Shown here: positions 31,289-47,278 of the stretch, piece by piece
Position numbering within the stretch: position 1 is the first letter of the stretch
Layout: each line of letters starts with the position of its first letter
Origin: Myxococcota bacterium
GTDB lineage: Bacteria; Myxococcota_A; Polyangia; Polyangiales; Houyiibacteriaceae
Reading direction: 5' to 3'
DNA: 64,000 nucleotides
NCBI GenBank assembly: GCA_039186435.1
Contig: JBCDAA010000001.1
Location: 2,433 to 66,432 of the forward strand
Notes under the pieces: generated by a model
Database searches by the model: none
What the model was told of the DNA's origin: nothing
Seen by the model: the letters and a program-made list of their open reading frames with translations, nothing else
Program-made: the position numbers and the translations under genes

Positions 31289-31366
31289 GGCGCAATTGTA
31301 GTGCTTTCGGTCCCTCGGGTTACCCACATCGCGGAGCCGCGGGTTGCCGTGTAGGCTTGGTGCACG

Positions 31367-33202
31367 GTGATGCGGCAGTTCGTTTCTCTCGGAGTCTTTC
31401 CCGTTCTCGTCGGGGTGTTGCCATTCCTGCACGGTTGCGGTGCACCGGCGCAGGGGCAGGACGTGGCTTGGTACGACCCTGCACCGCTCCTCGCGAACCT
31501 GCGTGCGGACGACCGCCGCAACGTCAGCAGCTACACGCCTCACGGGCCGAATGCGGTCCCCTACTACGACCTCGACCTTTCGCTCGCGCACAACCAAACC
31601 CGCTTCGAGATGGACGAAGAGGTGTGGTTTACGAACACCACGGGGGGCGAGCTCGAAGACTTGGTGCTTCGGGTGTTCGCGAACTCGGTCGGGGACTCGC
31701 CAAGGATTCGCGTGTCGGACGTTCGCTGTGTTGCGGCGACATGCACGTCCGAAATCGATGCGCGCCACGGCGCGATCACCGTTCGTCCTGAGACCGCGAT
31801 TCCGGAAGGCGGTCGGCTTCGGGTGCGGCTGCGTTTGAACGGCGCCCTGACGCATATCGATCCCCAGCGAACCGGGATGATGGCGCAGGCCATGGAGAGC
31901 CAGGCGCAGCTCTCGTCCGGCAACCTCCATGGCGACTACGGACTTCTCGCGGAGAGCAACGGCGTAGCGTCGCTCGGGAACTTCTACGCCATGGTTGCCG
32001 CGCGCCGGGGCGGCCGTTGGGTGAAGCGCGACGAGAGCACGATGGGCGATCTCGGAAGCGGCGACATCAGCCACTTTCGCGCGCGTATTCGTTGTGCCCC
32101 GGGCTCGCGAGTGGCCGTGAGTGGTCACGTTCTTCGTGAGGAGACGGTGCTGGGGCAGCCGACGCAGCACGAGGTGCGTGCGGTCGCGGGGATGGTTCGC
32201 AACTTTGCGATCGTCGTGAGCGACCGGCTCGAGTTTGTGCAGCGCGAGGTGAACGGCGTGACCGTTCGAAGCTGGTTTGAACCGGCGGATCGTTCAGAGG
32301 GCGCGACGGTGCTCGCGTCGGCGGCCGAGGCCCTACGGATTTTTGAGCGACGTTTTGGCCCCTATCCGTACACCGACTTGGACGTCGTGGAGGCGCCTCT
32401 TGTCGGCGGCGCGGGCGGCGTGGAGTTCAGCGGGCTCGTAACCATCGCGAAGATGTTTTACCCGTCGGGGGACGGGGCGGGACTCGGGATCATCGGTGCG
32501 CTGATGAATCGGCAAGGTTCCGGTCCGGGGATGCGCGAGTCGATGCTCGAGTTCGTGGTGGCGCACGAGGTTGCCCATCAGTGGTGGCACGGTGTGGTTG
32601 GAAGCGACGCGCGGCTTCATCCCTTCGTGGACGAATCGCTCGCGCAGTTCAGTTCGGTTCGCTACATGCGGGATCGCCATGGGGCCGAGCGTGCGGAGCT
32701 GGAGTCGCGCCGGCAGGTGGCGTCGAACTACCACATGATGCGGAATCAAGGGCTGGAGGATGGTGCGGTCGATCGCCCCGTCGCGTCCTTTCAGCATCCG
32801 ATGGCGTACGCCGGGCTCGTGTACGGGAAGGGCGCGTTCGCGTATCGCGAGACGGAGCGCGTGGTCGGCGAGGCGGCGTTCTATCGCGCGCTTCGACGCT
32901 ACGTGCGGGAGAATCGTTTTGGCGTGGCGGAGCCGCGGTCCCTCTTTTCGCTTTTGGCGCGCGGTCGCCATCGGCGCGCGGTTCGGCGGATCGAGCGGCG
33001 GTGGCTCGATGGGACGCACGGCGACGAGGATCTTGGTGCAGCCGACATGGGCCGCATGATGGCGGATTGGTTCGGCGGCGGTGGTGAAGGCGGCGCGGGC
33101 GGCATGCTCGACCAGGTGATGCAGCTCCTCGGCGGGACCGGGAACGCGCCACCGAATCTCGATGCGGACGCGCTCCAGGACGCGCTTCGCAGTCTTCAGT
33201 AG
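31367..33202 (+). CDS. M1-family zinc metallopeptidase (aminopeptidase N-like), secreted/lipoprotein
   Basis: Signal FPVLVGVLPFLHGCG. HEXXH-E zinc site VAHEVAHQWWHGVVGSD...VDESLAQF. Degenerate GAMEN region (GGAGGVEFSG). Confidence 0.85.
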   Translation: MMRQFVSLGVFPVLVGVLPFLHGCGAPAQGQDVAWYDPAPLLANLRADDRRNVSSYTPHGPNAVPYYDLDLSLAHNQTRFEMDEEVWFTNTTGGELEDLVLRVFANSVGDSPRIRVSDVRCVAATCTSEIDARHGAITVRPETAIPEGGRLRVRLRLNGALTHIDPQRTGMMAQAMESQAQLSSGNLHGDYGLLAESNGVASLGNFYAMVAARRGGRWVKRDESTMGDLGSGDISHFRARIRCAPGSRVAVSGHVLREETVLGQPTQHEVRAVAGMVRNFAIVVSDRLEFVQREVNGVTVRSWFEPADRSEGATVLASAAEALRIFERRFGPYPYTDLDVVEAPLVGGAGGVEFSGLVTIAKMFYPSGDGAGLGIIGALMNRQGSGPGMRESMLEFVVAHEVAHQWWHGVVGSDARLHPFVDESLAQFSSVRYMRDRHGAERAELESRRQVASNYHMMRNQGLEDGAVDRPVASFQHPMAYAGLVYGKGAFAYRETERVVGEAAFYRALRRYVRENRFGVAEPRSLFSLLARGRHRRAVRRIERRWLDGTHGDEDLGAADMGRMMADWFGGGGEGGAGGMLDQVMQLLGGTGNAPPNLDADALQDALRSLQ

Positions 33203-33391
33203 ATGGGGCGTTTGTTGCTCAGCCTGCAGGTGATGACGTTGCTGGCGGGATGCGACCCCACCAGCCACTGCGCGCGCCACCGCGAGAGTGCCCAGTCTCG
33301 GAATGGTCTCGATGTGCGCTGTCAGCGCTGCTGCTGGGAGTACGGGCAGGATGGGCATTTCGATGCGGAAGGCGTTTGCCGGTGTCGCTGA
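33203..33391 (+). CDS. Possible small Cys-rich lipoprotein (62 aa)
   Basis: The ATG directly abuts the TAG of the peptidase gene. Lipobox MTLLAGC, then 7 further Cys including CQRCC and CRC. No homology recognised, so it may be spurious. Confidence 0.3.
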   Translation: MGRLLLSLQVMTLLAGCDPTSHCARHRESAQSRNGLDVRCQRCCWEYGQDGHFDAEGVCRCR

Positions 33392-34075: not shown

Positions 34076-34080
34076 GCCAA

Positions 34081-34210
34081 CCGTCCGAGGTGCGTCTCAG
34101 AACGGGTGGGTGGCCCAACCTCGGCCTTTGGTCGAATCGCGGAAAACCACGTGTCAAAACAGGTGGGTGGCCTCGACTTGGCCTGGACTCGGTCCGTCCG
34201 AGGTGCGAAC
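34081..34210. repeat. Composite intergenic repeat: two CCGTCCGAGGTGCG motif copies flanking a 57-bp-spaced imperfect direct repeat (core GGTGGGTGGCC)
   Basis: Motif at 34081-34094 and 34194-34207. Direct repeat cores at 34105-34115 and 34162-34172. It lies in the 351-bp spacer upstream of the sterol operon. Confidence 0.8.
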
Positions 34211-34426
34211 CCCGGTCGCGGGCGCCGAGGCGTAACAGAACGGAAACATTAGGATTCTTGTTCGATACCGCCGCGCCACCCCGGCTCGCACCGCCAGGGG
34301 AACGACTCGCCGGAGCCCAAGCCGGCTCGCCGGATAGTCTCCCGCGCTCGACACAGCCCCTGCTACCCACCTGCTGCGCAAAAGTGTGCGGTGTTGCCGC
34401 CGTCGCACTGTGCAGAAGGTGCACAC

Positions 34427-37400
34427 ATGAACCTTGCGAACAACTACGACGTGGTGGTGGTGGGTGCGGGACCGGCTGGAACCGGAGCCGCCGCAGGACA
34501 CGCGTGCCGCGGCGCCCGCGTTTTGCTGCTCGAGGCCAACCCCAAGGCGTCCCATCGCTTTGCCGGCGAGTGGATTCACCACACCGGCCGCGCCGTCCTC
34601 GAGCGAATGGGGCTCGCGCCCCAGGCTGCCACCGCCCACCACCCGCCGTGCCGGGGCTTCGCTGTCTTCCCCGACGACGGCTCCGAACCGATTCAGCTTC
34701 ACTACGCGGACGGCACCCTCGGGTTTTCCTCCGAGCACGGCGAGCTCGTAGAGGAGCTCCGGGCTCGTGCCGTCGCGATGGATGGCATCACCTACCTCGA
34801 GCGCGCCCGGGTCACGTCGGTCGGCGCGGACTCGGTCACCTTCAAGTACAAAGGCGGGCAGGAAACCGTTCGCGCGGGTCGCATCGTCGCCGCCGACGGC
34901 CGCTCCTCGGTCGTGCGCAGGTCTCTTCGCGCGGAAGATCAAAGCGACGTCCTCAGCCACATGGCGGGCGTAGAGCTTCACGGCACACTCCCCTTCGAGG
35001 GTTTCGGCCACGTATTGCTCGGCGGACCGGGCCCGGTTTTGCTCTACCGCATTGCCGAAAATCGTATCCGCGCATGCATCGACATTCCGGTGGGTGCCCC
35101 GGGCGCTCGCCGCGACGCGCGCTTTCTTTGGGACGCGTTCGCGCCCCGCTTTCCGGCGCAGCTTCGTGGCGCGCTTCGAGAGGCTCTCGAGTCCCGCCGC
35201 GTGTCCTGGGCCTGCAATCGCTTCATGCCGCGGACGTTTTACGGCGAGGGTCGCATCGCTCTCATCGGAGACGCGGTCGGCTTCTACCACCCGCTTACGG
35301 CAAGTGGGATCACGATCGGCCTCAAGGACGCCGAAGCGCTGGTTGCAAGCGATACGGTCGCCGAGTACGCGCGCACTCGTGAGCCCCAGAGCTACGTTCC
35401 CGAACTCCTCGCGAACGCTCTCAACCAGGTCTTCATGCGGGAAGACGAGAGCGCGGAAGCGATTCGGCGCGCCGTCTTTGAGATGTGGCGCGGTCACGCG
35501 GACGAACGCGAGCGGACGATGCGAATCCTCGCGGGCGACGAGGTTCGCGTGGACCAGTTTGGGGCAGCGTTCTTTCGTGTCGCGATCCGCGCGGTGCGCG
35601 ACGTCGCCAAGGACAACCCGCGCACGCTCCGCCGCTTTGTGGAGTGGAGTCAGTGGCCGGGCGCGACGCTTGTTCCCGACCGCATTCGTCGCCGGATTCG
35701 CCCGGCGAGCAGCACCAACCACCCGCTGAAGGGCCTCCGTTTTGCGCCGACGCCTTTCTCCTTTGCGGAGGCGGAAGCGCCGAAGCTGACGGTAACGGTG
35801 GACGTCGACCGGATGCTCTCGCGGATCGACGACGAAGACATTCGCGCCCTTCCGGCGGTGGAGGCCCGCGCCGAGGCGCTTCGCTACGCGGTTGCAGAGC
35901 GAAACGTCGACGCGATCATGGAAGCGACGGAGCGCCTGCTCTCGGTTTGCATCGACACGACCTCGGGCGCTCGGGCCGCGGCTAGCGCGCTTCGGGATCT
36001 CAAGGACGCGTTTCCGGGGCTGCTCGCGGTCGAGGTTCGCCGAACGGAGTTGGCGATCCAAACGTTTCTTCGCGGACTCCAGGCCGAACGCGGGGCGTTC
36101 GGAACCCTCCGCGAAACGGCCGAAGCAATGGAAGCGCTGGTCGCCACCGGCGTTCCGGTATTTCACGCATCCGTCCGGCGGGCGTTTCGCTCCCTCGGCG
36201 CCGCGCAGCGTCCTGACGGAAGCTGGGACGGCGATGCTGCGACGACGGCCGTGGTCGCGCGCGCGCTCCTCGCAACGCGCTGCCCTCTTTTCGAAGCAGC
36301 CGAGCACGGGCTTTCGTTCCTGAACGATGCGGTGGTGCTCGACGCGACTGCAGGTGAAGCGCTTCGTCTCTACCGTGACCTGCGCACGATGCGGGTGACG
36401 CCCGTCAAGGCGCGCGGCGACGCGACCAAGGCGTCGAACGAAGACCACGCCTACTGCAAGGAGAGCCTCCTCGCGGTCTCGCGCAGCTTTGCCCGACCGA
36501 TCGAAATGCTGCCTGGCGATCTTCGCACGGCCGTTACGTGCGGCTATCTCCTCTGCCGCATCGCCGACACGGTGGAAGACAACGCGTTCTTCTCGACGGA
36601 AGAGCGCGACGAGCGCTACGCGACCTTCCTTCGGGCGCTCGGCGGCGACGAGAACGCCATCGCAACCTTCGAGCGTCAGTTCGTGGGCATTCGCGGCAAC
36701 GAGATCGAAAACGATCTCTGCCGTCACCTCTCGGTCGTGCTTCGCGTCTTCCGCACGCTCCCCGCGGGCATGCAGACGAAGACGGTCCGCTGGGTCGCTG
36801 AGATGACCCGCGGCATGCAGATCTACAGTCACCGCGACGCGGGCGACGACGGCATCGTGGCCGTGCACACGGTCGAAGATCTCGAGCGTTACTGCTTCTA
36901 CGTCGCCGGCACCGTTGGCCACATGCTCACCGATCTCTTCGTCGAGTCCTTCGGCGAGGTTGGCACCTCGGTCGAGCACGGCCTTCGCGAGCAGGCGGAA
37001 GCCTTCGGCATCGGCCTTCAGCTCGTGAACATCCTCAAGGACGTCACCGACGACAAGGAGCGCATGGTCTCCTACGTGCCGCGCGTGTCCTGCGCGAAGC
37101 AGGGTCTGAGCCTCGACGAGCTCCTCGAGCCGCAGCGTCGCGACACGGCGCACGCGGTGGTCGCGCCGCTCTTCGACGCCGCACAGGGTCGCCTCGATCG
37201 CGCCCTCGAGTACGTGCTGCAGATCCCGAAGGAGCATCAGCCGGTGCGCCTCTTCTGTCTGCTTCCCCTTTGGATGGCGGTTCGCACGCTCGTTCACGCG
37301 CGCGGCAACGACGCGATGTTCACGACGGGCGCCGCGGTGAAGATCAGCCGCGCCGAGGTCGAGCAGCTCATCGGCGACTGCCTCGCGAGCGCCGGCAACG

Positions 37401-37480
37401 ACGACCAGCTTCGGGCTCACTACGACGCGCTCTGGCGCGCGCCCGCCCTCACGACCTCCAGCAGCCTGCAGCTGAATTAG
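34427..37480 (+). CDS. Fusion protein: N-terminal FAD-dependent squalene monooxygenase (epoxidase), ~270-aa helical linker, C-terminal squalene synthase (SQS/PSY family)
   Basis: N-terminus: VVVGAGPAG, VAADGRSSVVR, GDAVGFYHPLTASGITIG (SE-type GDAxNxRHPLTGGG). C-terminus: AVSRSFARPI, YLLCRIADTVED (DTxED), YCFYVAGTVGHMLTDLF, GIGLQLVNILKDVTDD. Single uninterrupted frame; start set to ATG 34427. Confidence 0.88.
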   Translation: MNLANNYDVVVVGAGPAGTGAAAGHACRGARVLLLEANPKASHRFAGEWIHHTGRAVLERMGLAPQAATAHHPPCRGFAVFPDDGSEPIQLHYADGTLGFSSEHGELVEELRARAVAMDGITYLERARVTSVGADSVTFKYKGGQETVRAGRIVAADGRSSVVRRSLRAEDQSDVLSHMAGVELHGTLPFEGFGHVLLGGPGPVLLYRIAENRIRACIDIPVGAPGARRDARFLWDAFAPRFPAQLRGALREALESRRVSWACNRFMPRTFYGEGRIALIGDAVGFYHPLTASGITIGLKDAEALVASDTVAEYARTREPQSYVPELLANALNQVFMREDESAEAIRRAVFEMWRGHADERERTMRILAGDEVRVDQFGAAFFRVAIRAVRDVAKDNPRTLRRFVEWSQWPGATLVPDRIRRRIRPASSTNHPLKGLRFAPTPFSFAEAEAPKLTVTVDVDRMLSRIDDEDIRALPAVEARAEALRYAVAERNVDAIMEATERLLSVCIDTTSGARAAASALRDLKDAFPGLLAVEVRRTELAIQTFLRGLQAERGAFGTLRETAEAMEALVATGVPVFHASVRRAFRSLGAAQRPDGSWDGDAATTAVVARALLATRCPLFEAAEHGLSFLNDAVVLDATAGEALRLYRDLRTMRVTPVKARGDATKASNEDHAYCKESLLAVSRSFARPIEMLPGDLRTAVTCGYLLCRIADTVEDNAFFSTEERDERYATFLRALGGDENAIATFERQFVGIRGNEIENDLCRHLSVVLRVFRTLPAGMQTKTVRWVAEMTRGMQIYSHRDAGDDGIVAVHTVEDLERYCFYVAGTVGHMLTDLFVESFGEVGTSVEHGLREQAEAFGIGLQLVNILKDVTDDKERMVSYVPRVSCAKQGLSLDELLEPQRRDTAHAVVAPLFDAAQGRLDRALEYVLQIPKEHQPVRLFCLLPLWMAVRTLVHARGNDAMFTTGAAVKISRAEVEQLIGDCLASAGNDDQLRAHYDALWRAPALTTSSSLQLN

Positions 37481-37490
37481 GACAACGACG

Positions 37491-38594
37491 ATGCCTGCTT
37501 CCGACGCCCCCATTCTTGTCACCGGCGCCGCCGGCCACCTTGGCGCCAACCTCGTTCACGAACTCGTGGGCCGCGGCGAGCGCGTTCGCGTCCTCCTTCG
37601 CGCCGAAGAAAACAACGAAGCCGTTGACGGTCTCGATGTGGAGCGCGCCTTTGGCGATCTCCGCGACGCGAGCTCCCTGAAGATCGCGGTCGATGGCTGC
37701 CGCCAGGTCTTTCACGTCGCCTCGATGGTCTCGACCCTCGACGGTGACTCGGCGCACAAGCGAACCATCTACGACACGAACGTGATGGGGACGCGGCACC
37801 TTCTGCACGCCGCGCAGCGCGCCAACGTCGATCGCTTCGTGCTGACGAGCTCCTTCAGCGCCGTTGGCTACGACCAGGATCGCACGGACCTGCCCTCCGA
37901 CGAGACGAACCAGTTCTTCCCCTTCATTCAGGCGATGCCCTACGAGCGCACCAAGGTGCTCCAGGAGCACGAGCTGCTGAAGGCGGTCGCGGAAAACGGC
38001 ATGGACGCGCTCATCGTCACGAGCTGCGCCATCGTTGGCGGCCACGACTACCTGCCGTCGCGCATGGGCCGAACGCTCTGCAAGATGGCGAACCGTGAGC
38101 AGCGCGCCTACGTCGATGGCGGTTTCGAGTTCGTCGCTGCGCGCGACATCGTTGCCGGTCATCTCCTCGCGATGGAGCGCGGCCGCAAGGGTCACAAGTA
38201 CATCGTCGCGACGCAGTTCATGACCCTCGACGATATTTTCGACATTCTCGAGGAGATTACGGGGCAGCCCCGACCCAAGTACCGCATTCCAACCAAGGCG
38301 CTCCTTCCGGTGGCCGAGGTTGTGAGTCGCGCGCTCTACGCGCTGAACCCTTCGTTCCCGCAGCTTTTGACGCCAGGCGCGATCCGCAAGCTTCGTCCGC
38401 GCCGTCACGCCGACACGAGCAAGGCGCGGCGCGAACTTGGCTTTCGCCCCTCGTCGCTCGAGGAAGCGTTTCGCGAGGCCTACGCGTTTCATTGGAAGCG
38501 CGGCGCTATCACGCACCCCGGTGCGAAGCGACCGAAGGTGGCGGCCGCGTCGAAAACGACCGTCTCCCCGACCTCCATTCCCATTCACGCGTGA
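37491..38594 (+). CDS. Extended SDR, 3-beta-hydroxysteroid dehydrogenase/NAD-dependent epimerase family (SdmB-like candidate C4-demethylation reductase/decarboxylase)
   Basis: ILVTGAAGHLGANLVHEL Rossmann motif and PYERTK (YxxxK). 10-nt gap from the upstream gene and 5-nt gap to the Rieske gene. Confidence 0.8.
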   Translation: MPASDAPILVTGAAGHLGANLVHELVGRGERVRVLLRAEENNEAVDGLDVERAFGDLRDASSLKIAVDGCRQVFHVASMVSTLDGDSAHKRTIYDTNVMGTRHLLHAAQRANVDRFVLTSSFSAVGYDQDRTDLPSDETNQFFPFIQAMPYERTKVLQEHELLKAVAENGMDALIVTSCAIVGGHDYLPSRMGRTLCKMANREQRAYVDGGFEFVAARDIVAGHLLAMERGRKGHKYIVATQFMTLDDIFDILEEITGQPRPKYRIPTKALLPVAEVVSRALYALNPSFPQLLTPGAIRKLRPRRHADTSKARRELGFRPSSLEEAFREAYAFHWKRGAITHPGAKRPKVAAASKTTVSPTSIPIHA

Positions 38595-38599
38595 ATCTG

Positions 38600-39763
38600 A
38601 TGAGCCGTATTTACACGCAAGACCCGAGTCGTCGTCCGCCGACCTTTGAGGAAGCGCGCAACACGCGCCAGAAGGTGCGCGCTGCCGGGATGCATCCCGA
38701 CTATTGGTATCCCGCTCTCTGGGAGGGGGACCTCAAGGCTGGCGAGGTTAAAGAGGTCGTCTTTTGGCGGCGTAGCATCGCGGTCTACCGCGGGGATGAC
38801 GGTCAGGTGCGAGCGGTCGAGAACCGCTGCGCGCACCGGCAGCTGAAGCTCACCGGCGGCTTCGTCGAAGGCTGCAACCTGGTTTGCCCGTACCACGGCT
38901 GGAGCCACAACGGTGAAGGCAAGGTGGTCGACATTCCGCACTCGCTCTTCGGAAAGAAGTACCCGAAGTTCAAAGTGCCCGCCGTGCCGGTCAAGATTCG
39001 CTACGGCGTCATCTGGATCTTTCCGGGCAATCCCGACAAGGCGGAGACGGTCGCGCTCCCGGAGATTCCGGAGCTGGAGGGCCGTGATCCCTGGGCGCAC
39101 ATCGCGGTCGACTACACCGTGTCCGCGCACCACTCGATGGTGATCGACAACGTTTCCGACTTTACCCACGCCTACCTTCATCGGCGCTTCAAGCCCTTCT
39201 CCGACGCCCAGCTTCTCCGCTACGAGCTCATCGGTGACACCATCGAGCTCGAGTACAACACCAAGGTGGGCCGCGGCCGCTTCAGCGGGCTCTTCGTGGA
39301 TCGCAAGAGCGTCGACACCGAGCACATGAAGCTCGCCTTCGAGTATCCGTACCAGCGCTCCAACACCGACGACCAAATCAAGCACTGGCTCTTCGTGCGG
39401 CCGATCGACGAGCGCACCACGGCGACCTTCTATATTTTCTATTTCCGAAAGTTCACGATTCCGTTCACGAGTCGTGCGATTCCAAAGCCCATCCTGAGAA
39501 CCTTCCTTCGCATCGCGAAGAAGATGACGGTGGGACCGCTGCTCCAGGAAGACGCGGACGCCGTCGACGCCGAGCAGCGCGGTTACGAAGACCATTTCGA
39601 CGCTCCGATCGCGGAGCTCAATCCGGTCGTCAAAGCGTTTCAGTCGCTGACGATTCGGAAGTGGCAGGAGTACCTGGACAGCCAGGGCAAAACCTCCCTC
39701 AAGAAGAAACCAAAGAAGACGAAAACCCCGGCCGCCACCGGTTCCACAACGGCGAACGCGTAG
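38600..39763 (+). CDS. Rieske [2Fe-2S] non-heme iron oxygenase (SdmA-like candidate sterol C4-methyl oxidase)
   Basis: Rieske CAHRQLKL...CPYHGWSH. Mononuclear iron motif DNVSDFTHAYLH. Start set to ATG 38600 (MSRIYTQ). Confidence 0.85.
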   Translation: MSRIYTQDPSRRPPTFEEARNTRQKVRAAGMHPDYWYPALWEGDLKAGEVKEVVFWRRSIAVYRGDDGQVRAVENRCAHRQLKLTGGFVEGCNLVCPYHGWSHNGEGKVVDIPHSLFGKKYPKFKVPAVPVKIRYGVIWIFPGNPDKAETVALPEIPELEGRDPWAHIAVDYTVSAHHSMVIDNVSDFTHAYLHRRFKPFSDAQLLRYELIGDTIELEYNTKVGRGRFSGLFVDRKSVDTEHMKLAFEYPYQRSNTDDQIKHWLFVRPIDERTTATFYIFYFRKFTIPFTSRAIPKPILRTFLRIAKKMTVGPLLQEDADAVDAEQRGYEDHFDAPIAELNPVVKAFQSLTIRKWQEYLDSQGKTSLKKKPKKTKTPAATGSTTANA

Positions 39764-39772
39764 GAGACAACG

Positions 39773-41056
39773 ATGGAAGAGCGCAGCTCACGGATTCCCG
39801 GTTTCTATCGCCTTGACGTGACGTCGCGGCACCACGAGCTCCAAAGCCGCTTTGGGCTGACGAGCGACGAGGTCGACATTCTCCGGGACGGCAGCCGTCT
39901 CGACGTCGGTCGCGCGGACAAGATGGTCGAAAACTGCGTCGGCGTCTTCGGACTGCCGATCGGTCTCGGTCTCAACTTCCTCGTGAACGGCCAGGACTAT
40001 GCCGTACCGATGGTGGTGGAGGAGCCGAGCGTTGTGGCCGCGGTCAGCAACATGGCGCGCACGGTGCGTCAGGTGGGCGGCTTCACAGCGGACGCGGACG
40101 ACTCGCTCATGATCGGCCAGGTGCAGATCGTGGAGACGCCGGACCCGGCCGACGCCGTGGAGCGCTTGAAGGCCGCGCGCCAGGCGATCCTCGACAAGGC
40201 CAACGCCGTGCACCCAAACATGAAGCGTCGTGGCGGCGGCGCGCGGGAGATCGAGGTTCGTCTCTTCGAGGAGCCGTACCCGATGATCGTGCTTCATCTG
40301 ATCGTCGACTGCGGCGAGGCGATGGGCGCAAACGCGATCAACGCGATGGCCGAGGGCGTCGCGGGTCTGGTGGAAGAGCTCAGCGGCGGCCGTGTGAACC
40401 TCCGCATCCTGTCGAATCTCGCCGATCGGCGCTGCGCGCGCGCACACTGCCGCATTCCAGAGCTGCTCCTCGCGGGCAACGGCTTTAGCGGCACCGAGGT
40501 CGCTGAGGGCATCGTGCAGGCGTACCGCTTTGCCGCGGTCGATCCCTACCGCGCGGCGACCCACAACAAGGGCGTCATGAACGGCATCGACGCGGTCGCG
40601 ATCGCGACCGGCAACGACTGGCGCGGCGTCGAAGCAGGAGCCCACGCTTTTGCCGCACGCGACGGGCGCTACACCTCGCTCACGCGCTGGTGGCGGGAAG
40701 ATGGTCACCTTCACGGTTCGATCGAACTTCCGATGGCCGTCGGCGTGGTCGGCGGGAGCACGAATGTGCACCCCACCATCAAGGTGATGCGAAAGATCCT
40801 CGCCATCGAAAGCGCTGCGGAGCTCGGCATGGTGATGGCGGCGGTCGGTCTTGCGCAGAACATGGGCGCCCTTCGTGCGCTCGCGACCGAAGGCATTCAG
40901 CGCGGTCACATGAGCTTGCACGCGCGGCAGATCGCGCTCGCCGCGGGCGCCGAGGGCAAGCAGGTCGAGAAGATCGCGGACCAGCTCGTCGCCATGGGCA
41001 AAGTAAAGATCGACGTCGCGCGGGACCTTCTCGAAGGTCAGCAAAAGGTCAGCTGA
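39773..41056 (+). CDS. Class II HMG-CoA reductase
   Basis: ENCVGVFGLPIGLGLNF, VEEPSVVAA, GEAMGANAINAM, THNKGVMNGIDAVAIATGNDWR. 427 aa with no membrane domain. Confidence 0.92.
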   Translation: MEERSSRIPGFYRLDVTSRHHELQSRFGLTSDEVDILRDGSRLDVGRADKMVENCVGVFGLPIGLGLNFLVNGQDYAVPMVVEEPSVVAAVSNMARTVRQVGGFTADADDSLMIGQVQIVETPDPADAVERLKAARQAILDKANAVHPNMKRRGGGAREIEVRLFEEPYPMIVLHLIVDCGEAMGANAINAMAEGVAGLVEELSGGRVNLRILSNLADRRCARAHCRIPELLLAGNGFSGTEVAEGIVQAYRFAAVDPYRAATHNKGVMNGIDAVAIATGNDWRGVEAGAHAFAARDGRYTSLTRWWREDGHLHGSIELPMAVGVVGGSTNVHPTIKVMRKILAIESAAELGMVMAAVGLAQNMGALRALATEGIQRGHMSLHARQIALAAGAEGKQVEKIADQLVAMGKVKIDVARDLLEGQQKVS

Positions 41057-43125
41057 TGCAAAGCGCCGCGGACGTGCTCGCGCGGGGGACCCGGCGCCTG
41101 GTGGACCTCCAACTCGATCCGCGTGACGGTGAGACACGCCCCGAGCGAAGCGACCTCCCCAATAAATACTGGGAAGGGGAGGACATCTGGAACTCCATGC
41201 TCGCCGCGCAGTTCGCGCTCGCGTGGCACATCATGGAGCGTCCTCTCAGCAAGGAACGCCGCGAGCGCATCCTGACCCAGTTTCGCCACGAGCAGCTTCC
41301 GGGCGGGCTCTGGGGCATGCATCGCTTTGGCGAGCCTTCGCTCTTTGTGACGACGCTGGTGTACGTCGCGAGTCGCACGCTTGGCGTGTCGGCGAACGAC
41401 CCCTTCCTCGCGCCGGCGCGCGCGTTCTTCGCCCAGGAAGACGTTCTCGAGATTCCGAGTTGGGGCAAAGCCTGGCTGGCGCTGACGAACCTCTACGAGT
41501 GGTGGGGCGTTAACGCCGTGCCGCCCGAGGCGTGGCTTTTGCCGGAGCGTTTTCCGCTGCATCCGGCGAACTACTACTGTCATACGCGCCTCATCTACAT
41601 GGGCATGGCGAGCGTCTTCGGGTTGAAACTGCAGGCGCGGCGGACGGCGCTTACCGACGAACTTCGCGATGAGCTTTACCCCGGCCGAGACTACCGGCGG
41701 CTGGATTTTGCGGGCAGCCGTCACGCGCTTCGCAAGGGCGACCTTTGGGCGGCGCCGACGCGCGCGCTCCGCACCATGTACAACGCGGTGAATGTCTTTG
41801 AGCGCTTTCACGCACCGGCCCTTCGGCGCCGCTGCCTGAAGACGCTTCGCGAGCGGATGCGCTGGGAGCTTCGCTCGAGCGACTACACGTGTCTTTCGCC
41901 GGTCAACGGTCTGCTCTTCATGCTCACGCTTTGGGCGTGGGATAAGCACGACGAAGTGCTCCAAAAGCAGGTCGCGCGCTTCGACGGCTGGATCTGGGAA
42001 GACGACGAGGAAGGGCTTCGCGTTTGCGGCGCCCGGAGCGCGACCTGGGACACGAGCTTTGTGCTTCAGGCGCTGAGTGCGGCGCGGCCTTCGCTGCCGA
42101 AAGGCGCCGCGGACGACGCGCTCGTTAGCGGTCTCGGCTGGCTGAAGACGCAGCAGATGCACGGTCCGGTGACCGGCGACAAAGACGACTACAAAAAAGC
42201 GTATCGCCTCGACCCGACCGGCGGCTTTTGTTTTGCCGGCGTATGGCACGGCTGGCCCGTGAGCGACTGCACCGCCGAAGCGCTCTGCGCGTTTCTCGAA
42301 GCGCCGCGGGATCTCTTTCAGGCCGACCGACACGCGGTCGAAGCCGGGATTCGTTTCCTGCTTCAGTGCCAGAACAAAGACGGCGGCTTCGGCAGCTACG
42401 AGTCGCGCAAAACGCACGTAAATCTCGAGTGGATGAACCCCGCCGAGATGTTCGGCGACTCGATGACGGAGCTCTCCTACTACGAGTGCACCGCATCGAA
42501 TCTCATCGCGCTCGCGGAGGTGCGAAAGCGCTACCCGAATCTGCTTCGCCGGGAGATCGACCGCGCCATCGAGCGCGCCGAAACGTACCTGCGGCAGTCG
42601 CAGAACGCGGACGGAAGCTGGAACGGCGCCTGGGGCGTCGCGTTTCTCTACGGAACGCTCTTTGGCATACGTGGTCTTCGTGCCGCGGGCGCGCTGGAGA
42701 ATGACCCGGCCATCGAGAGCGCGCGTGCCTTCGTTCGCAAGCACCAGCGCGAGGACGGAAGTTGGGGCGAGCACTGGCGGACCTGTCTGACGGATCGCTA
42801 CGAGGATCTCGGCCACGGCCACGTCGTGCAGACGGCCTGGGCACTCCTTGCGCTACTGGAGTCCGGCGAGGACGACGCGAGCGTTCTCGAGCCCGCGATG
42901 CGCTGGCTTTCGGACGCGCAGCTCCCGAATGGGGACTGGTCCGAGCAGGAGTTCGCTGGCGTGTTCTTTCGAACCGCCCTCATCGAATATCGACTTTATC
43001 GCCGGATCTTCCCGGTTTGGGCCCTGGCGCAGTACGAGGCGCTTCGCGCGACGCGTGAGAAGGCCCACCCGAAGACCGCGCCGATCGCCCCGAGCACGCT
43101 AAAGGAACACCATGTCAGGTCTTAG
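41056..43125 (+). CDS. Oxidosqualene cyclase (lanosterol/cycloartenol synthase family)
   Basis: Catalytic VSDCTAEAL (DCTAE, not the SHC DxDDTA). Several QW repeats (QNADGSWNGAWG, QREDGSWGEHW, QNKDGGFGSYE, QLPNGDWSEQE). ATG 41056 overlaps the HMGR stop (TGATG). The upstream part of ORF 40690.. is an out-of-frame overlap of HMGR. Confidence 0.92.
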   Translation: MQSAADVLARGTRRLVDLQLDPRDGETRPERSDLPNKYWEGEDIWNSMLAAQFALAWHIMERPLSKERRERILTQFRHEQLPGGLWGMHRFGEPSLFVTTLVYVASRTLGVSANDPFLAPARAFFAQEDVLEIPSWGKAWLALTNLYEWWGVNAVPPEAWLLPERFPLHPANYYCHTRLIYMGMASVFGLKLQARRTALTDELRDELYPGRDYRRLDFAGSRHALRKGDLWAAPTRALRTMYNAVNVFERFHAPALRRRCLKTLRERMRWELRSSDYTCLSPVNGLLFMLTLWAWDKHDEVLQKQVARFDGWIWEDDEEGLRVCGARSATWDTSFVLQALSAARPSLPKGAADDALVSGLGWLKTQQMHGPVTGDKDDYKKAYRLDPTGGFCFAGVWHGWPVSDCTAEALCAFLEAPRDLFQADRHAVEAGIRFLLQCQNKDGGFGSYESRKTHVNLEWMNPAEMFGDSMTELSYYECTASNLIALAEVRKRYPNLLRREIDRAIERAETYLRQSQNADGSWNGAWGVAFLYGTLFGIRGLRAAGALENDPAIESARAFVRKHQREDGSWGEHWRTCLTDRYEDLGHGHVVQTAWALLALLESGEDDASVLEPAMRWLSDAQLPNGDWSEQEFAGVFFRTALIEYRLYRRIFPVWALAQYEALRATREKAHPKTAPIAPSTLKEHHVRS

Positions 43126-44101
43126 TCGAGACGCTTTTCAGGACACCGTTCGCGAGTACCGCGGCCTTCACGACGACTCGGACGTCGAGACGCGCAAGGC
43201 GCAGTACACGACCCTGGTCAACCAGTACTACGACCTGGCGACGGACTTCTACGAGTTCGGCTGGGGCCAGCACTTTCATTTTGCGCCGCGCTTCAAGCAC
43301 GAGAAGTTTCTCGACTCGCTGCATCGCCACGAGCGTTTTCTCGCGCGCAAGCTTCGCCTCTACCCGGGTCAGGAAGTCCTCGACGTCGGCTGTGGCGTGG
43401 GCGGTCCCGCGCGTTACATCGCGAAGCACACGGGTGCATCGATCACCGGCGTGAACAACAACGCCTACCAGATCGAGCGCGGCCAGCGGCACACGCGCCG
43501 CGCAAAGCTCGCGCACCTCGTTCGCTTTCAGAAGGCGGACTTCATGGAGCTCCCCTACGAGGACGATCACTTCGACGCCATCTACACGATCGAAGCGTCC
43601 TGCCACGCGCCCGACCGCGTGAAGCTTTTCGAGGAGCTCCGCCGGGTGATGAAGCCGGGCGCGGTCTTCGGCGGCTACGAGTGGTGCCTCACGGATCGCT
43701 ACGACGCGGACAATCCCGCCCACCAGAAGATCAAAAAGGACATCGAGGTCGGCAACGGCCTCCCGGACCTTTCGCACACCTCGGTGATCGATCGCTCCCT
43801 CGAGAAAGCCGGCTTCGAGCTGATCGAGACCAAGGACCTGGCGCCGACGGGCGACCCCCAGACGCCCTGGTACCTCGCGCTCACGGGCGGCGACCTGTCG
43901 CTTTCGAGCATTCCGCGGACGCCCATCGGTCGCGAGATCACCAACGCGGTCACCGTGATCCTGGAGAAGCTTCGCCTCGCGCCGAAGGGCACCAAGCAGG
44001 TCAGCGACTTCCTCAACGAAGGCGCAGACGCGCTGGTGGCCGGCGGTGAGACCGGCACCTTCACGCCGATGTACTTCTTCCTGGTTCGCAACCCCGGCTG
44101 A
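43112..44101 (+). CDS. Sterol C24-methyltransferase (ERG6/SMT family, SAM-dependent)
   Basis: YYDLATDFYEFGWGQHFHF (SMT region I), SAM motif VLDVGCGVGGPARYIA, IEASCHAPD, and a C-terminal sterol-MT region. Overlaps the OSC 3' end by 14 nt. Confidence 0.9.
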   Translation: MSGLSRDAFQDTVREYRGLHDDSDVETRKAQYTTLVNQYYDLATDFYEFGWGQHFHFAPRFKHEKFLDSLHRHERFLARKLRLYPGQEVLDVGCGVGGPARYIAKHTGASITGVNNNAYQIERGQRHTRRAKLAHLVRFQKADFMELPYEDDHFDAIYTIEASCHAPDRVKLFEELRRVMKPGAVFGGYEWCLTDRYDADNPAHQKIKKDIEVGNGLPDLSHTSVIDRSLEKAGFELIETKDLAPTGDPQTPWYLALTGGDLSLSSIPRTPIGREITNAVTVILEKLRLAPKGTKQVSDFLNEGADALVAGGETGTFTPMYFFLVRNPG

Positions 44102-44213: not shown

Positions 44214-45767
44214 CTAAACGACGGACTCGACCCGCCGAATGCCCTTGCGGGAAACCACAACGCGAATACGCCGCCACGGAGCGCTCTCGTCCTTTGCGGT
44301 GCGTAGGCGATACACGATGGCGATGTTGTACACCCGCGGCGCGACGGCGGAGTAGATGTGGCGGTCGTCCGGATCCGCGAAGACGATCCGCTGCTTGGGG
44401 TCGTCTGTGTGCATGAGCCAGCGCTGAAGGTCGAGGCGAAAGACCTCGGTGATGGCGACGAAGCGATCGTCGCACTTGCCGATGCTCTCGGGATCCCAGC
44501 GGCAACGCTTTTGGTGCCAGAGAACCGCTTCGGGACGCGCATGCCGTTCAAGGTCGTGGGCGCGCGTGCTGTTTCGAACCGCCAGCACGTCCTCAGGCAG
44601 CTCCGCGCCTTTCACAAAGCTAGACCGTTCCTGAACGGTACCCACCGTCTGCTTCGACTCGGGTTCGCTCACTCGCCAGCGACGATCGGGAAGACGACGA
44701 GCCACCCAGCGGGAGAACACGCCCTGCAGAGTCGCCTTGATGCGGTCCTTGCCGGCGTAGGCGAGCATGACGATCGTCGCCCACGCCCAGAGGTCGCCGA
44801 GGCGGCGCCAGGTCGCACCGTGATAGGCCGCCATGATGATGGCGAAAGCCATCGCCAAGGATGCCGCCACCGCGTAGAGAATCTGCAGCGTAAGGCGCCC
44901 TCCCTCAGCGACGTCGCGGTGCAGATGAAGCACCGACGCACTGAAGCGCTTGAGCAAATGCCGGCGAAACTCAAGGTGTTCGACGTCTCGTTTGTCAACG
45001 GTGGCCGTACCGACGCCGTCCATCTCGCGATCGCGACGGTAGCGCGCTTCTCGAACCGCGCTTGCCGCAATGCGTGAGGCGACCTTCTGGTGGCCGGCTT
45101 CGCGCAGCTGCAGCGAGAGCGTGGCGAGCGTCGTCTCGATGAGAACGGAAAGGTCCTCGTCGATGTACTGCGCCGCGACCAGGGTGGCGTCGCTTTGGCA
45201 CTGGTCGATCGCCTCGCGAACCCGCAGAAGAAGCTGTCGGCTTTGAGACGCGAGGGAGAGCGCAGCGCTCGGCGCGGTTTCTTCGCCAAGTTCGAGGAGC
45301 TCTTGAATGTGCCGGCGCGCCGCGCTGATCGACGTGCGCACGCAGCTCGCAAAGATTCGGAGCTCGCGCAGCGCGATCGCGTCCGGGCGCGTCACCGCAA
45401 TCGGAAGACTCTTCGCCTGCTCGACGAGCTCGTCGAGAGGACGTCCGGCAACCGCAAAGCGCACGTAGCTGTGGAGGTCTTCGTAGATATGTCCCTTGCC
45501 GTACGTGTGCTTATTGACGCGCAGGCTGTCGGGAACGAAGAAGTAGGCTTCCCAGACGTAGTCGCGTTCGCCCTTCTTCGTGGGGTAGTCGATCGCGAAC
45601 TCGAGGTGCGTCCGGTCGTGGACCCGCCACTGCGGCGGGCTGTCCCCGGGGCTGAGCTCACCAAGAAGAGAAGCCCATTCCGTGGGAGGTGCGAGCGTGC
45701 TCCGCAAGGGGGCCGCCCGAAGTTGCGCCTCGGCGCGCCGCTTGGCTGTGGACGCCACGTCTGTCAC
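44214..45767 (-). CDS. Hypothetical membrane protein (helical N-domain, 2 TM helices, C-terminal domain)
   Basis: 517 aa with a GTG start. TM pair LTLQILYAVAASLAMAFAIIMAAY / LWAWATIVMLAYAG. No family recognised. Convergent with the sterol methyltransferase gene. Confidence 0.6.
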   Translation of the reverse strand: MTDVASTAKRRAEAQLRAAPLRSTLAPPTEWASLLGELSPGDSPPQWRVHDRTHLEFAIDYPTKKGERDYVWEAYFFVPDSLRVNKHTYGKGHIYEDLHSYVRFAVAGRPLDELVEQAKSLPIAVTRPDAIALRELRIFASCVRTSISAARRHIQELLELGEETAPSAALSLASQSRQLLLRVREAIDQCQSDATLVAAQYIDEDLSVLIETTLATLSLQLREAGHQKVASRIAASAVREARYRRDREMDGVGTATVDKRDVEHLEFRRHLLKRFSASVLHLHRDVAEGGRLTLQILYAVAASLAMAFAIIMAAYHGATWRRLGDLWAWATIVMLAYAGKDRIKATLQGVFSRWVARRLPDRRWRVSEPESKQTVGTVQERSSFVKGAELPEDVLAVRNSTRAHDLERHARPEAVLWHQKRCRWDPESIGKCDDRFVAITEVFRLDLQRWLMHTDDPKQRIVFADPDDRHIYSAVAPRVYNIAIVYRLRTAKDESAPWRRIRVVVSRKGIRRVESVV

Positions 45768-45892: not shown

Positions 45893-47278
45893 CTACGGCG
45901 CGACCATGTTCTCCGCGCCCGGCGTGTTCACCGCCTCACCCGATGCCGCAGCGCTCGCCTCGCCCGGGCTGGTGAACTCGTTTCGAACCCAGTCGCCTGT
46001 TGCGTCGGTATCGGTGCCGTTCGGAATGCGCGATGCGCCGCCGACGGTGGTCTCGCCTCCATCGAAGTCGGGGGTGAGGACGACCGAGCTGTAGGTGAGG
46101 TCGCCCGCTTCGCCGTCGCTGATCGATACGCTGTCGAGAACGGCGAGCCAGGGCGGATCGTCGGGGGTTCCGTCGTCGTCGGTGTCCACGTCCACGCCAC
46201 GAACACCGGTGAACCCAAGCACCAACATCGCCGTCGAGGTTCCGTTTTCGATGAAGTTGTCGGAGGTGGTCGACCAGTAGCCGTCCGCGTCCGTCGAATC
46301 GAGAGGTGCCACGACTTCGATGCGGCCCTGGCCGAGATCGTCGCCTTCGATGACGAGAAAGGTCAGCGAGGAGAGGTCCGTGTCCGGGTTCCCCAAGACC
46401 TCGATGAACTCGCTGTCGTCGCTGCCTTCGTGGTTGAAGACGAACTCGTTGATGACAGCGACGGGGGAGCTCGCTTCCGCGTTCGGTGTGCCCGGCGTAT
46501 TCAGCGCTTCGCCGTCCTGCGGCGTTCCTGGATCGAGGGCGGCGATCCCGGCGCCGTCGAAGTCGTTGCGAAGCCAGTCCGCCGGCATGTCGGTGTCGGT
46601 ACCGTCTGGGAAACGCGAGGCTCCGCCGAAGGTGATGTCGACGCCGTCGTCGTTCGGCGAGAGCACCGAAGTGCCGGCGTAGGTGAGGTCTCCGTCGCCA
46701 CCATCGTTCACACCGAGCTCGTCGAGGATCAAGGCCCAGGGCGTTCGTTCGAGGGTTCCGTCGTCATCCTCGTCGAGGTCCATCAGCGCGGCGCCGGTAA
46801 AGCCCTGCACCAGAAGATACGTTTGGGAGCCGTTCTCCAGCGTATCCATCGGCAGGAAGCCTGTCTGCCAGAAGCCTTCGGCGTCCGTGGTCCCTACCTC
46901 GAGCACGTCCTCGATCACGCCAGGCGACGCGCTCGCGGAGTCTCCGTCGCCTTCGAGGACAAGAATTGAAAGCGATGAAAGGTCGGTGTCCGCGTCCCCG
47001 AGGAGTTCGATGTACTCGGCCGTGTCCATGCCGATGTGGTTCGCGACGATCTCGTTGAAGACCACCTCGCCGACCGGGTCCGGGGGCGCGCTGTCGCGCG
47101 GAGCGTCCATCGCGGCATCCATCGCGGCGTCTTCACCGGCGTCCGTGCCCGCGTCTTCGCCCGCATCCCCACCCGTGGAGGAATCGACGCCGCTGTCCGT
47201 GCCGCTGTCGGCCGGAGCGGAGTCATCGCCACACGCCCCGAGGGACGCCATCAAGATTAAGCTGATCCAAGTTCGCAT
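45893..47278 (-). CDS. Lipoprotein with two lamin-tail-domain (LTD)-like repeats
   Basis: Lipobox LMASLGACG and an acidic linker. Two ~190-aa repeats start VVFNEIVANHIGMDTAEYIELLGDADTDLSSLSILVLEGD and AVINEFVFNHEGSDDSEFIEVLGNPDTDLSSLTFLVIEGD. Confidence 0.55.
   Translation of the reverse strand: MRTWISLILMASLGACGDDSAPADSGTDSGVDSSTGGDAGEDAGTDAGEDAAMDAAMDAPRDSAPPDPVGEVVFNEIVANHIGMDTAEYIELLGDADTDLSSLSILVLEGDGDSASASPGVIEDVLEVGTTDAEGFWQTGFLPMDTLENGSQTYLLVQGFTGAALMDLDEDDDGTLERTPWALILDELGVNDGGDGDLTYAGTSVLSPNDDGVDITFGGASRFPDGTDTDMPADWLRNDFDGAGIAALDPGTPQDGEALNTPGTPNAEASSPVAVINEFVFNHEGSDDSEFIEVLGNPDTDLSSLTFLVIEGDDLGQGRIEVVAPLDSTDADGYWSTTSDNFIENGTSTAMLVLGFTGVRGVDVDTDDDGTPDDPPWLAVLDSVSISDGEAGDLTYSSVVLTPDFDGGETTVGGASRIPNGTDTDATGDWVRNEFTSPGEASAAASGEAVNTPGAENMVAP

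Follow-up and report, generated by a model that had tools for sequence, protein, structure and literature searches.

A predicted six-gene sterol operon with a fused squalene monooxygenase and squalene synthase in an uncultured Polyangia-type myxobacterium

That bacteria make sterols, and above all that they methylate the side chain, bears on the assignment of sterane biomarkers to eukaryotes (PMC10070321). How much of such a pathway can one compact bacterial locus encode, and which sterol would come out of it? The question is raised by six genes at positions 34427–44101 of a 64,000-nucleotide (nt) stretch of Myxococcota DNA (contig JBCDAA010000001.1 of assembly GCA_039186435.1), hereafter the window, whose numbering is used throughout. 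In order, they are predicted to encode a fusion protein with squalene monooxygenase and squalene synthase domains, an SdmB-like dehydrogenase, an SdmA-like Rieske oxygenase, a 3-hydroxy-3-methylglutaryl-CoA reductase (HMGR), an oxidosqualene cyclase (OSC), and a sterol C24-methyltransferase (SMT). Reading the products by homology, as in every functional statement below, we conclude with a probability of about 85% that the operon would turn farnesyl diphosphate (FPP) into a C4-demethylated, C24-alkylated sterol.

The six-gene operon and its predicted products

The six open reading frames (ORFs) all lie on the + strand, and neighbours overlap or stand at most 10 nt apart, an arrangement noted in the first-pass annotation of this DNA and borne out, junction by junction, by direct reading of the sequence. 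The fusion gene ends with TAG at 37478–37480, followed by a 10-nt spacer and the sdmB ATG at 37491; sdmB ends with TGA at 38592–38594, 5 nt before the sdmA ATG at 38600, and an alternative sdmA start, the in-frame GTG at 38591, would create a GTGA stop/start overlap with sdmB. After the sdmA stop (39761–39763), a 9-nt spacer that includes AGGAG leads to the HMGR ATG at 39773. The A at 41056 is common to the HMGR stop TGA and the OSC ATG (TGATG), and the SMT ATG at 43112 lies 14 nt within the OSC gene, whose stop occupies 43123–43125. The G+C content is ~65% throughout the window and uniform across the operon region, and within the six ORFs the G+C fraction is 0.74–0.86 at third codon positions (GC3) versus 0.41–0.51 at second positions (GC2), the pattern expected for real genes in 65% GC DNA. 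Between 33300 and 45000, no sigma-70-like promoter was found and terminator-like matches were no commoner than in shuffled sequence; Rfam and tRNA scans of the window found no RNA genes. The locus is probably a single, translationally coupled operon of an uncultured Polyangia-type myxobacterium. Eukaryotic contamination was considered and rejected, given the operon structure, the uniform 65% GC, and the bacterial flanking genes (LolA-like, FHA/PP2C, RHS toxin). A bacterial host is also indicated by the upstream genes for a tetratricopeptide-repeat (TPR) protein and an M1 peptidase, a synteny common to the window and contig L078.

The arrangement recurs among relatives. In a synteny set of 86 cyclase-anchored loci (cited below by L numbers), the exact order of fusion gene, sdmB, sdmA, reductase, cyclase, and methyltransferase is found in 13, representing about nine lineages (L001, L003–L006, L008/L082/L083, L009, L080, and L141–L143), with OSC identities of 56–73%. 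These loci come from Polyangia/Sandaracinus-type metagenome-assembled genomes (MAGs), including marine Tara contigs, and are packed with gaps of 25 nt or less or with overlaps, except for a 160-nt gap between sdmB and sdmA in L141. The nearest cyclases (70–73% identical) belong to Polyangiales and Polyangiaceae MAGs, among them a complete 9.07-Mb chromosome (L001), and an identical operon is present in the marine ‘Sandaracinus sp.’ MAG GCA_002703625.1, whose SMT occurs in 41 index blocks, including Tara Oceans samples. The recurrence of order and tight spacing in 13 loci confirms that the clustering of the six genes is more than chance. Other loci are variants of the same theme: sdmA is missing in L002 and L077–79, both sdmA and sdmB in L013 and L061, and the methyltransferase gene in L007 and L017; a CYP51-type cytochrome P450 gene stands between reductase and cyclase in L010 and L012, and downstream of the reductase in the rearranged cluster L071. 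The most constant feature is the HMGR gene directly upstream of the cyclase, seen in more than 25 loci with the two genes 0–165 nt apart or overlapping.

All six product families named in the first-pass annotation were recovered with Pfam and NCBIfam. Judged by family profiles and its active-site motif, gene 5 (41056–43125, +) encodes an oxidosqualene cyclase, not a hopene cyclase. It scores 643 bits with the OSC model TIGR03463 versus 254 bits with the hopene cyclase model TIGR01507, and matches the structure of human lanosterol synthase (1W6K) at E 6e-119 versus 4e-52 for a squalene-hopene cyclase; the grouping with squalene-hopene cyclases that would have told against the earlier assignment was thus not what we found. 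The DCTAE motif noted with that assignment is present as VSDCTAE at residues 402–408, which align to human V453–E459 (the V/I-x-D-C-T-A-E form, not the DxDD of squalene-hopene cyclases).

Genes 2 and 3 are, on homology, the bacterial SdmB/SdmA pair for removal of C4 methyl groups. Gene 2 (37491–38594, +) would encode an NAD(P)-dependent short-chain dehydrogenase of the 3-beta-hydroxysteroid dehydrogenase/decarboxylase type, with Pfam 3Beta_HSD and Epimerase matches; its best NCBIfam model is SdmB (NF052578, 306.6 bits), with HpnA next at 242.5 bits, and its translation has GAAGHLG and YERTK motifs. Gene 3 (38600–39763, +), a putative Rieske non-haem iron oxygenase (C4-methyl sterol monooxygenase), is closest to SdmA (NF052579, 397.8 bits, the next family reaching 32 bits), with Pfam matches to Rieske (73.8 bits) and VanA_C (41 bits). 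Its translation carries the CAH...CPYH cluster ligands and a DNVSDFTHAYLH iron motif, i.e., the CxH...CxxH and DxxxDxxHxxxH forms. Identities to Calothrix sp. NIES-4105, which is a cyanobacterium, are 52% for the SdmB region and 58% for SdmA, and Calothrix SdmAB demethylates lanosterol at C4 (PMC10202945). The two genes are adjacent inside the cluster, and the pair is kept in most related loci but is incomplete in L002 and L077–79, which have no sdmA.

Gene 6 (43112–44101, +) is likewise, by its domains and motifs, a true sterol side-chain methyltransferase of the ERG6/SMT family. The sterol-specific C-terminal domain Sterol_MT_C (PF08498) is matched at 85.2 bits (cut-off 21.7) and Methyltransf_11 at 78.6 bits, so that the grouping with cyclopropane-fatty-acid or ubiquinone methyltransferases envisaged as a possible refutation does not describe it. 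Substrate region I of ERG6 and plant SMTs has the form Y-E-[YFW]-G-W-G, and the gene 6 translation contains FYEFGWGQHFHF and VLDVGCGVGGP motifs, with YEFGWG as substrate region I. JGI names its relatives ‘sterol 24-C-methyltransferase’, and sequence identities are 63% with Sandaracinus sp. MAQ14715.1 and 43% with a soybean SMT. Metagenomes and MAGs have yielded bacterial SMTs, several from sterol clusters, that produce 24-methyl, 24-ethyl, or 24-isopropyl sterols in vitro (PMC10070321). The Sandaracinus enzyme (P0158/MAQ14715.1) was considered as the SMT from a cluster assayed by Brown et al. and rejected: because its contig has one SMT in the same six-gene operon, and the paper describes two adjacent SMTs, no link can be drawn between this relative and the tested enzyme.

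Gene 4 (39773–41056, +) encodes, by profile score and motifs, an intact class II HMGR, which, going by operon context only, would work in the biosynthetic direction. It scores 399.5 bits with TIGR00532 (cut-off 260) and aligns over its full length to structures 6DIO and 1QAX (E ~1e-127 to 1e-130). The roles of the catalytic Glu, Lys, Asp, and His residues are known from the Pseudomonas mevalonii enzyme, and in the alignment to 6DIO the motifs VEEPSVVAA, THNKG, GNDWR, and RGHMSLH are kept. Gene 1 (34427–37480, +) is described with the fusion protein below.

Taken together, the predicted pathway can be rationalized into a few steps. (i) Precursor supply: the extra HMGR would lift mevalonate flux whenever the operon is expressed, with the rest of the mevalonate pathway, FPP synthase, and electron donors supplied from elsewhere in the genome. 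(ii) Squalene formation and epoxidation: the fusion protein would make squalene and pass it directly to its own epoxidase. (iii) Cyclization: the gene 5 cyclase would make lanosterol. (iv) Modification: SdmA and SdmB would take off one or both C4 methyl groups, and the methyltransferase would extend the delta-24 side chain at C24 by one carbon or more; how many methyl groups leave C4 and how many carbons are added at C24 is not predictable from sequence. C14 demethylation, if it occurs, would depend on genes outside the window.

Several points weigh against this reading. The operon carries no HMG-CoA synthase, mevalonate kinases, decarboxylase, isopentenyl diphosphate isomerase, or FPP synthase, and no reductase or ferredoxin electron donor for the monooxygenase or the SdmA Rieske oxygenase. 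Since these mevalonate enzymes, the FPP synthase, and the redox partners lie outside the operon, the route is not self-contained, as had been proposed for it. Four scores fall under NCBIfam equivalog or subfamily cut-offs, namely SdmA (398 bits) and SdmB (307 bits) under the cut-off of 600 for Methylococcus-type orthologues, OSC under that of TIGR03463 (643 vs. 851 bits), and the squalene synthase domain under that of TIGR01559 (123 vs. 287 bits); the products of genes 1, 2, 3, and 5 are therefore relatives, not close orthologues, of characterised enzymes. As SdmB and SdmA homologues that are not strict equivalogs, the products of genes 2 and 3 may differ in function, as SdmA/SdmB function does between Methylococcus, Calothrix, and Enhygromyxa salina (PMC10202945). 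The closest relatives, with 70–72% identical fusion proteins (L077–79, L002), have no sdmA, so that some lineages either do without C4 demethylation or encode it elsewhere. NCBIfam names the family of the gene 4 reductase ‘degradative’. A single transcript and translational coupling are what we infer from the spacing of 0–10 nt gaps or overlaps and from its conservation only. Finally, enzymes for C14 are missing from the window, as the first-pass annotation had already observed for CYP51: a six-frame tblastn search with the L012 CYP51 gave a best E of 0.26 across the 64 kb, the P450 haem motif was found in no window ORF of at least 250 amino acids (aa), and Pfam scans of selected gene-like window ORFs found no ERG24, ERG4, or other sterol-modifying families, leaving no C14 reductase in the window.

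C14 demethylation and the possible end product

Does the absence of CYP51 mark a pathway that continues elsewhere in the genome, or one that has been shortened? The evidence stands evenly poised for the former, in which the operon is the core of a longer ‘regular sterol’ pathway, with CYP51, a C14 reductase, and perhaps more encoded elsewhere in the genome, as in E. salina, and with a 4,14-demethylated 24-alkyl sterol as the product. Sister operons L010 and L012, as well as L071, carry a CYP51-type P450, which argues that the lineage once had CYP51. Dispersal has precedents: the sterol genes of E. salina are scattered (PMC10202945), and homologues for C14 demethylation are reported by Brown et al. 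to lie elsewhere in a marine Sandaracinus MAG (PMC10070321). Against a longer pathway stand the lack of a CYP51 homologue in the 64-kb window and two limited scans of a genome collection, in which genomes with this operon type yielded no contig. The first scan, with a three-sequence CYP51 alignment and two peptide patterns only, gave 57 loci, none from such genomes; the broader one, with a seven-sequence alignment, gave no contig of this operon type among at least 600 matches listed, and the query's own contig was also not among the matches listed. Both are weak negatives, and neither scan returned the complete chromosome OZ245758.1.

A second explanation, first suggested in the earlier annotation, is that the lineage lost C14 demethylation and that the six genes are the whole modification pathway, yielding 24-alkylated sterols that keep the 14-alpha-methyl group and are partly or fully demethylated at C4. 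We regard this as plausible, though somewhat doubtful. It is favoured by the junction between reductase and cyclase, which in this operon type has the stop of the one touching or overlapping the start of the other at the place where L010 and L012 hold CYP51, by the absence of CYP51 from the window and its non-recovery, in limited searches, from genomes with this operon type, and by the finding that in E. coli SdmAB accept lanosterol with the 14-methyl group still on (PMC10202945). However, the absence covers 64 kb only and the collection scans are incomplete, and a CYP51 protein search, which named no match from genomes with this operon type, would have missed a divergent Sandaracinaceae-type CYP51 (42–44% identical to the query). 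A 14-methyl end product is thus a live possibility.

A broader proposal builds on C14 loss and is unlikely as a whole: it supposes a widespread clade of uncultured, partly marine-planktonic Polyangia in which sterol synthesis has been cut down to a portable six-gene module, combining scaffolded FPP-to-oxidosqualene channelling, a dedicated second HMGR, and CYP51 loss, to make 14-alpha-methyl, 24-alkylated ‘protosterol-like’ lipids. If true, free-living bacteria would supply sterol skeletons with an alkylated side chain and a retained 14-methyl group, and this would bear on the interpretation of alkylated steranes and protosteroids in the rock record.

The identity of the sterol skeleton depends on the cyclase. 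In eukaryotic enzymes, the residues at human positions 381/449/453 are the criterion, with T/C-or-Q/V for lanosterol and Y/H/I for cycloartenol; V453 is the residue used to call lanosterol versus cycloartenol production (PMC10152446). Gene 5 has A/H/V, a departure from the canonical eukaryotic pattern. Of 82 related cyclases compared, 81 have this triad, among them that of Calothrix sp. NIES-4105, which gave lanosterol in E. coli (PMC10202945). Because its triad matches that of the tested Calothrix enzyme, lanosterol is the best prediction for the gene 5 product, by homology at ~50% identity. That the cyclase instead yields a non-sterol triterpenoid (arborane-type or another oxidosqualene-derived product), on which the SdmAB-like and SMT-like enzymes would act, is very improbable: some bacterial OSC homologues do make arborane triterpenols (Banta et al. 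2017, as cited in PMC12324236), and position 381 is Ala, where canonical lanosterol synthases have Thr and cycloartenol synthases Tyr, but the Calothrix precedent, the lanosterol-type Val at 453, and the adjoining genes for sterol-specific SdmAB and for an SMT with a sterol-specific C-terminal domain all speak for a sterol.

The reductase bears on whether the cluster works as a unit. A second class II HMGR gene (63473–64000, +, cut by the window end) lies ~19 kb downstream of the operon, so that two paralogues fall within 23 kb. It follows a gene for a long-chain polyprenyl diphosphate synthase (62235–63476, +), whose stop its start overlaps by 4 nt; Pfam gives 190 bits for polyprenyl_synt and 106 bits for the second HMG-CoA_red, and NCBIfam identifies hepta/hexa/octaprenyl-type synthases and TIGR00532 across 62235–64000. 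The second HMGR is 44–46% identical to the operon copy. The operon HMGR is 56–82% identical to the OSC-adjacent reductases of relatives, versus 40–48% for the second copy, which makes the operon HMGR a distinct paralogue travelling with sterol clusters; because the second HMGR adjoins a polyprenyl synthase, the operon copy would be an extra, dedicated one. No mention of an HMGR inside a bacterial sterol cluster was found in the literature searched, where absence is not proof. The idea that the cluster is no functional unit, with genes separately transcribed or with the HMGR as a catabolic, NAD-dependent, mevalonate-degrading bystander, draws on the ‘degradative’ name of its best NCBIfam model and on its nearest solved structures, the P. 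mevalonii and Burkholderia-type enzymes, but carries little weight beside the constant position of the reductase upstream of the cyclase in more than 25 loci, its own distinct group among sterol clusters, the overlapping TGATG junction, and the use of the mevalonate pathway for isoprenoid synthesis in myxobacteria (PMC8237579).

The fusion protein and its cyclase-like middle domain

Gene 1 encodes a protein of 1017 aa in which Pfam finds FAD_binding_3 (aa 7–306), SE (aa 154–398), and SQS_PSY (aa 683–976). The first-pass annotation had described a squalene synthase fused to a squalene monooxygenase. Both domains are there, in the order monooxygenase N-terminal and synthase C-terminal, and a third, cyclase-like domain that had been overlooked lies between them. 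The full-length AlphaFold2 model has a mean predicted local distance difference test (pLDDT) score of 89.6 and a predicted template-modelling (pTM) score of 0.68.

The putative squalene monooxygenase (epoxidase) domain spans aa 1 to ~400 (34427–35626, +). A GAGPAG Rossmann motif and a GDAVGFYHPLTASG motif are seen in its translation, Pfam SE (PF08491) matches at 104.6 bits (cut-off 20.1), and the top PDB fold for this part of the model is human SQLE (6C6N, E 5.6e-21, target-normalised TM-score 0.80). At the other end, the putative squalene synthase domain (aa ~683–1017; 36473–37480, +) matches SQS_PSY (PF00494) at 152.8 bits. Its best NCBIfam model is the squalene synthase TIGR01559 at 123 bits, versus 63 for HpnD and 52 for HpnC, and its best PDB sequence matches are 7WGH and 1EZF, both squalene synthases (E 1e-21 to 8e-19), ahead of the dehydrosqualene synthase CrtM (3e-9). 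The domain has the two Asp-rich motifs, DTVED and DVTDD, whose residues vary hardly or not at all across the family alignment.

Between the two enzymes, the model shows a folded, all-helical region of ~270 aa, mostly with pLDDT above 90. Its core, the middle domain (aa ~456–680; 35792–36466, +), gives only a faint Pfam match to SQHop_cyclase_C (E 0.068). Profile comparison with hhalign is more telling: a middle-domain profile of 26 members aligns with a profile of 77 OSCs at a probability of 98.6% (E 5.8e-16, OSC aa 482–621), and a 400-aa version of the domain, the form in most family members, does so at 99.8% (E 3.9e-28, OSC aa 410–678); the catalytic DCTAE acid lies outside both alignments. 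Modelled alone, the domain is again all-helical (pLDDT 89.0, pTM 0.81), with human OSC (1W6J/1W6K; E 2e-4, query-normalised TM-score 0.59) and squalene-hopene cyclases as the best PDB folds. When the profile was searched against 1.8 billion representatives, coverage of most of the profile was seen, among the matches listed, only in proteins of fusion length (~1030–1200 aa), except for P0257 (657 aa), and the other matches listed involved the short cyclase-type repeat alone. Because the profile alignments leave out DCTAE, the fold is cyclase-like, and the domain is nearly restricted to fusions, the middle domain is best read as a truncated, non-catalytic cyclase relic, i.e., an alpha/alpha-repeat module related to triterpene cyclases. 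It may serve as a scaffold, membrane anchor, or cyclase contact. The small ‘squalene-hopene cyclases’ of Cystobacter fuscus/Archangium (8PAK, 8PAJ) were considered as free-standing counterparts and rejected, having no sequence match to the C. fuscus fusion at E ≤ 1e-5; they resemble the middle domain at fold level only.

Proteins of this kind form a large family: 322 match at E ≤ 1e-30, and all of the 120 listed have both enzyme domains, with lengths of 808–1317 aa. Among the homologues listed, every source name given is from Myxococcota, one being the cultured C. fuscus. No description of a natural fusion of squalene monooxygenase and squalene synthase was found in the literature searched, which is no proof of its absence. 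Divergent cyclase-like proteins of unclear role, without catalytic residues, have been described next to squalene monooxygenase in Myxococcota (Santana-Molina et al. 2020, PMC7306690; Hoshino and Gaucher 2021, PMC8237579). These SHC-like/OSC-like proteins (SHC, squalene-hopene cyclase) fit the middle domain found here, except that they are encoded by separate neighbouring genes, whereas in gene 1 a shortened version is fused in-frame between monooxygenase and synthase.

Relation to known sterol clusters, and the surrounding window

How new, then, is this locus? The first-pass annotation knew of no comparable case, which overstated the lack of precedent: clusters are on record that combine SMT, sdmAB, OSC, and squalene monooxygenase (PMC10070321) or ERG24, CYP51, and lanosterol synthase, in some cases together with SMT (PMC9531527), and the same operon is present in public MAGs, e.g., GCA_002703625.1. 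The kind of cluster is thus already known, as bacterial sterol clusters with SMT and sdmAB were published in 2022–2023, and the operon belongs with them. It differs by having no CYP51 or ERG24, by its monooxygenase/cyclase-like/squalene synthase fusion, and by its in-operon reductase, three differences of which the literature searched makes no mention. The operon is also more compact than usual.

The nearest comparison is with Brown et al. (2023, Nat Commun, PMC10070321), who describe bacterial sterol clusters in which SMT genes occur with sdmAB, OSC, squalene monooxygenase, CYP51, and ERG24, and who showed that the enzymes alkylate C24 in vitro. As in the present operon, their clusters from sponge symbionts and a marine Sandaracinus MAG bring together OSC, squalene monooxygenase, sdmA/sdmB, and an ERG6-type SMT, in MAGs that include Myxococcota. 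In contrast, the clusters in their Supplementary Data 1 carry CYP51 (ERG11) and ERG24, which this operon does not. At least two of them (an A. aerophoba metagenome and a T. swinhoei MAG) give the monooxygenase and the cyclase one gene ID, whereas here the monooxygenase is fused to squalene synthase, and no HMGR was found in the text and supplements searched, whereas here it stands directly upstream of the cyclase. ERG1 and ERG7 homologues share a gene ID in the sponge-symbiont clusters (PMC10070321), and the two domains abut, for instance, in L026 and L029 (within L026–L065); a monooxygenase–cyclase fusion may therefore exist in the sponge-symbiont cluster type.

Other known systems share less. 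The 21-kb cluster of Calothrix sp. NIES-4105 (Lee et al. 2023, Nat Commun, PMC10202945) also has a squalene monooxygenase, SdmAB, and an OSC with A/H/V that is ~50% identical; its OSC makes lanosterol and its SdmAB took off both C4 methyl groups. Unlike the present operon, it is cyanobacterial, spread over 21 kb, and equipped with CYP51 and a C8 isomerase, and it lacks an SMT of this type (the only match is at 32%), an HMGR, and a monooxygenase–squalene synthase fusion. In ten phyla, Kelly et al. (2022, Microbiome, PMC9531527) found ERG24, CYP51, and lanosterol synthase genes clustered, in some cases along with SMT. These sponge-associated clusters are similarly operon-like and often flanked by SMT or squalene synthase, but their core is ERG24–CYP51–lanosterol synthase, of which the first two are missing here, and their methyltransferase is usually on the opposite strand. 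The cholesterol pathway of E. salina (PMC10202945; PMC12004948) has in common with this operon a myxobacterial host and C4 demethylation of the SdmA/SdmB type; E. salina uses the mevalonate pathway. It differs in that its genes are dispersed, an extra SdmC is needed, and cholesterol is made, with no C24 alkylation reported.

The operon is thus not the first cluster to join cyclisation, SdmAB, and SMT, and the view of Myxococcota as the main bacterial sterol producers is unchanged. What it offers is a compact architecture, present in about nine lineages, that could be moved into E. coli as a single cloned fragment to learn the product of these uncultured myxobacteria. The natural monooxygenase/cyclase-like/squalene synthase fusion is useful for questions of substrate channelling and for engineering, and the in-operon reductases show recurrent recruitment of a second HMGR into sterol clusters. 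Moreover, the variants with and without sdmA, CYP51, or the methyltransferase form a natural series that could show how the pathway was assembled and trimmed.

Upstream of the operon lies a repeat-rich intergenic leader of ~350 nt (34076–34426, +), presumed to be its promoter/regulatory region. It holds a 35-nt direct repeat (34093–34127 and 34150–34184, 77% identical) that carries GGTGGGTGGC, two exact copies of CCGTCCGAGGTGCG at 34081 and 34194, and an inverted copy of the 10-mer GGTGGGTGGC at 34362–34373, 65 nt ahead of the start codon. The 10-mer was considered as a conserved operator and rejected, since none of 14 related loci has it upstream of the operon, and a regulatory role for the leader repeats is for this reason only a guess. 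Scattered over the window is a 14-nt motif, CCGTCC[G/C]AGGTGCG, with 14 matches at up to one mismatch versus 0.17 expected by chance (2612, 2678, 4097, 4804, 5304, 7407, 10099, 11225–11268, 13839, 34081, 34194, and 49285). Some copies are tandem, in 15-nt or 18-nt units, and two exact copies are in the sterol-operon leader.

Downstream, the methyltransferase gene converges with a gene for a 517-aa protein with two hydrophobic helices (44214–45767, −) that matches no Pfam or NCBIfam family. In L002, L006, L007, L008, and L017, a homologue lies at this same point after the operon, and in L078 and L082 the operon is followed by minus-strand genes of comparable size that carry no annotation. Next is a 461-aa Asp/Gly-rich protein (45893–47278, −) with a lipoprotein-like N-terminus (…SLGAC), a ~190-aa internal duplication, and no Pfam match. 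A sulfotransferase gene (50165–51334, +; Sulfotransfer_3, E 2e-27) lies 6 kb downstream of the operon, and homologues are found ~3–9 kb from the operon in at least three or four relatives (L007, L011, L017, L077). This recurrence may be inherited synteny only, and a link to sterol sulfation is pure speculation.

On the upstream side, long ORFs on opposite strands overlap at 29462–33358, comprising a DsbH/thioredoxin-like ORF (29462–32170, −), an M1-peptidase-like ORF (31367–33202, +), and an unannotated one (32333–33358, −); in L078, the genes before the operon are TPR and M1 peptidase genes only. Further away is a 2234-aa toxin-complex-like protein (18931–25635, +) with SpvB, TcdB_toxin_midN, FG-GAP, and RHS-repeat matches. 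Enzymes of the wax-ester synthase/diacylglycerol acyltransferase family are able to esterify alcohols, and one such gene (4177–5589, −; TIGR02946, 459 bits) lies 30 kb upstream of the operon.

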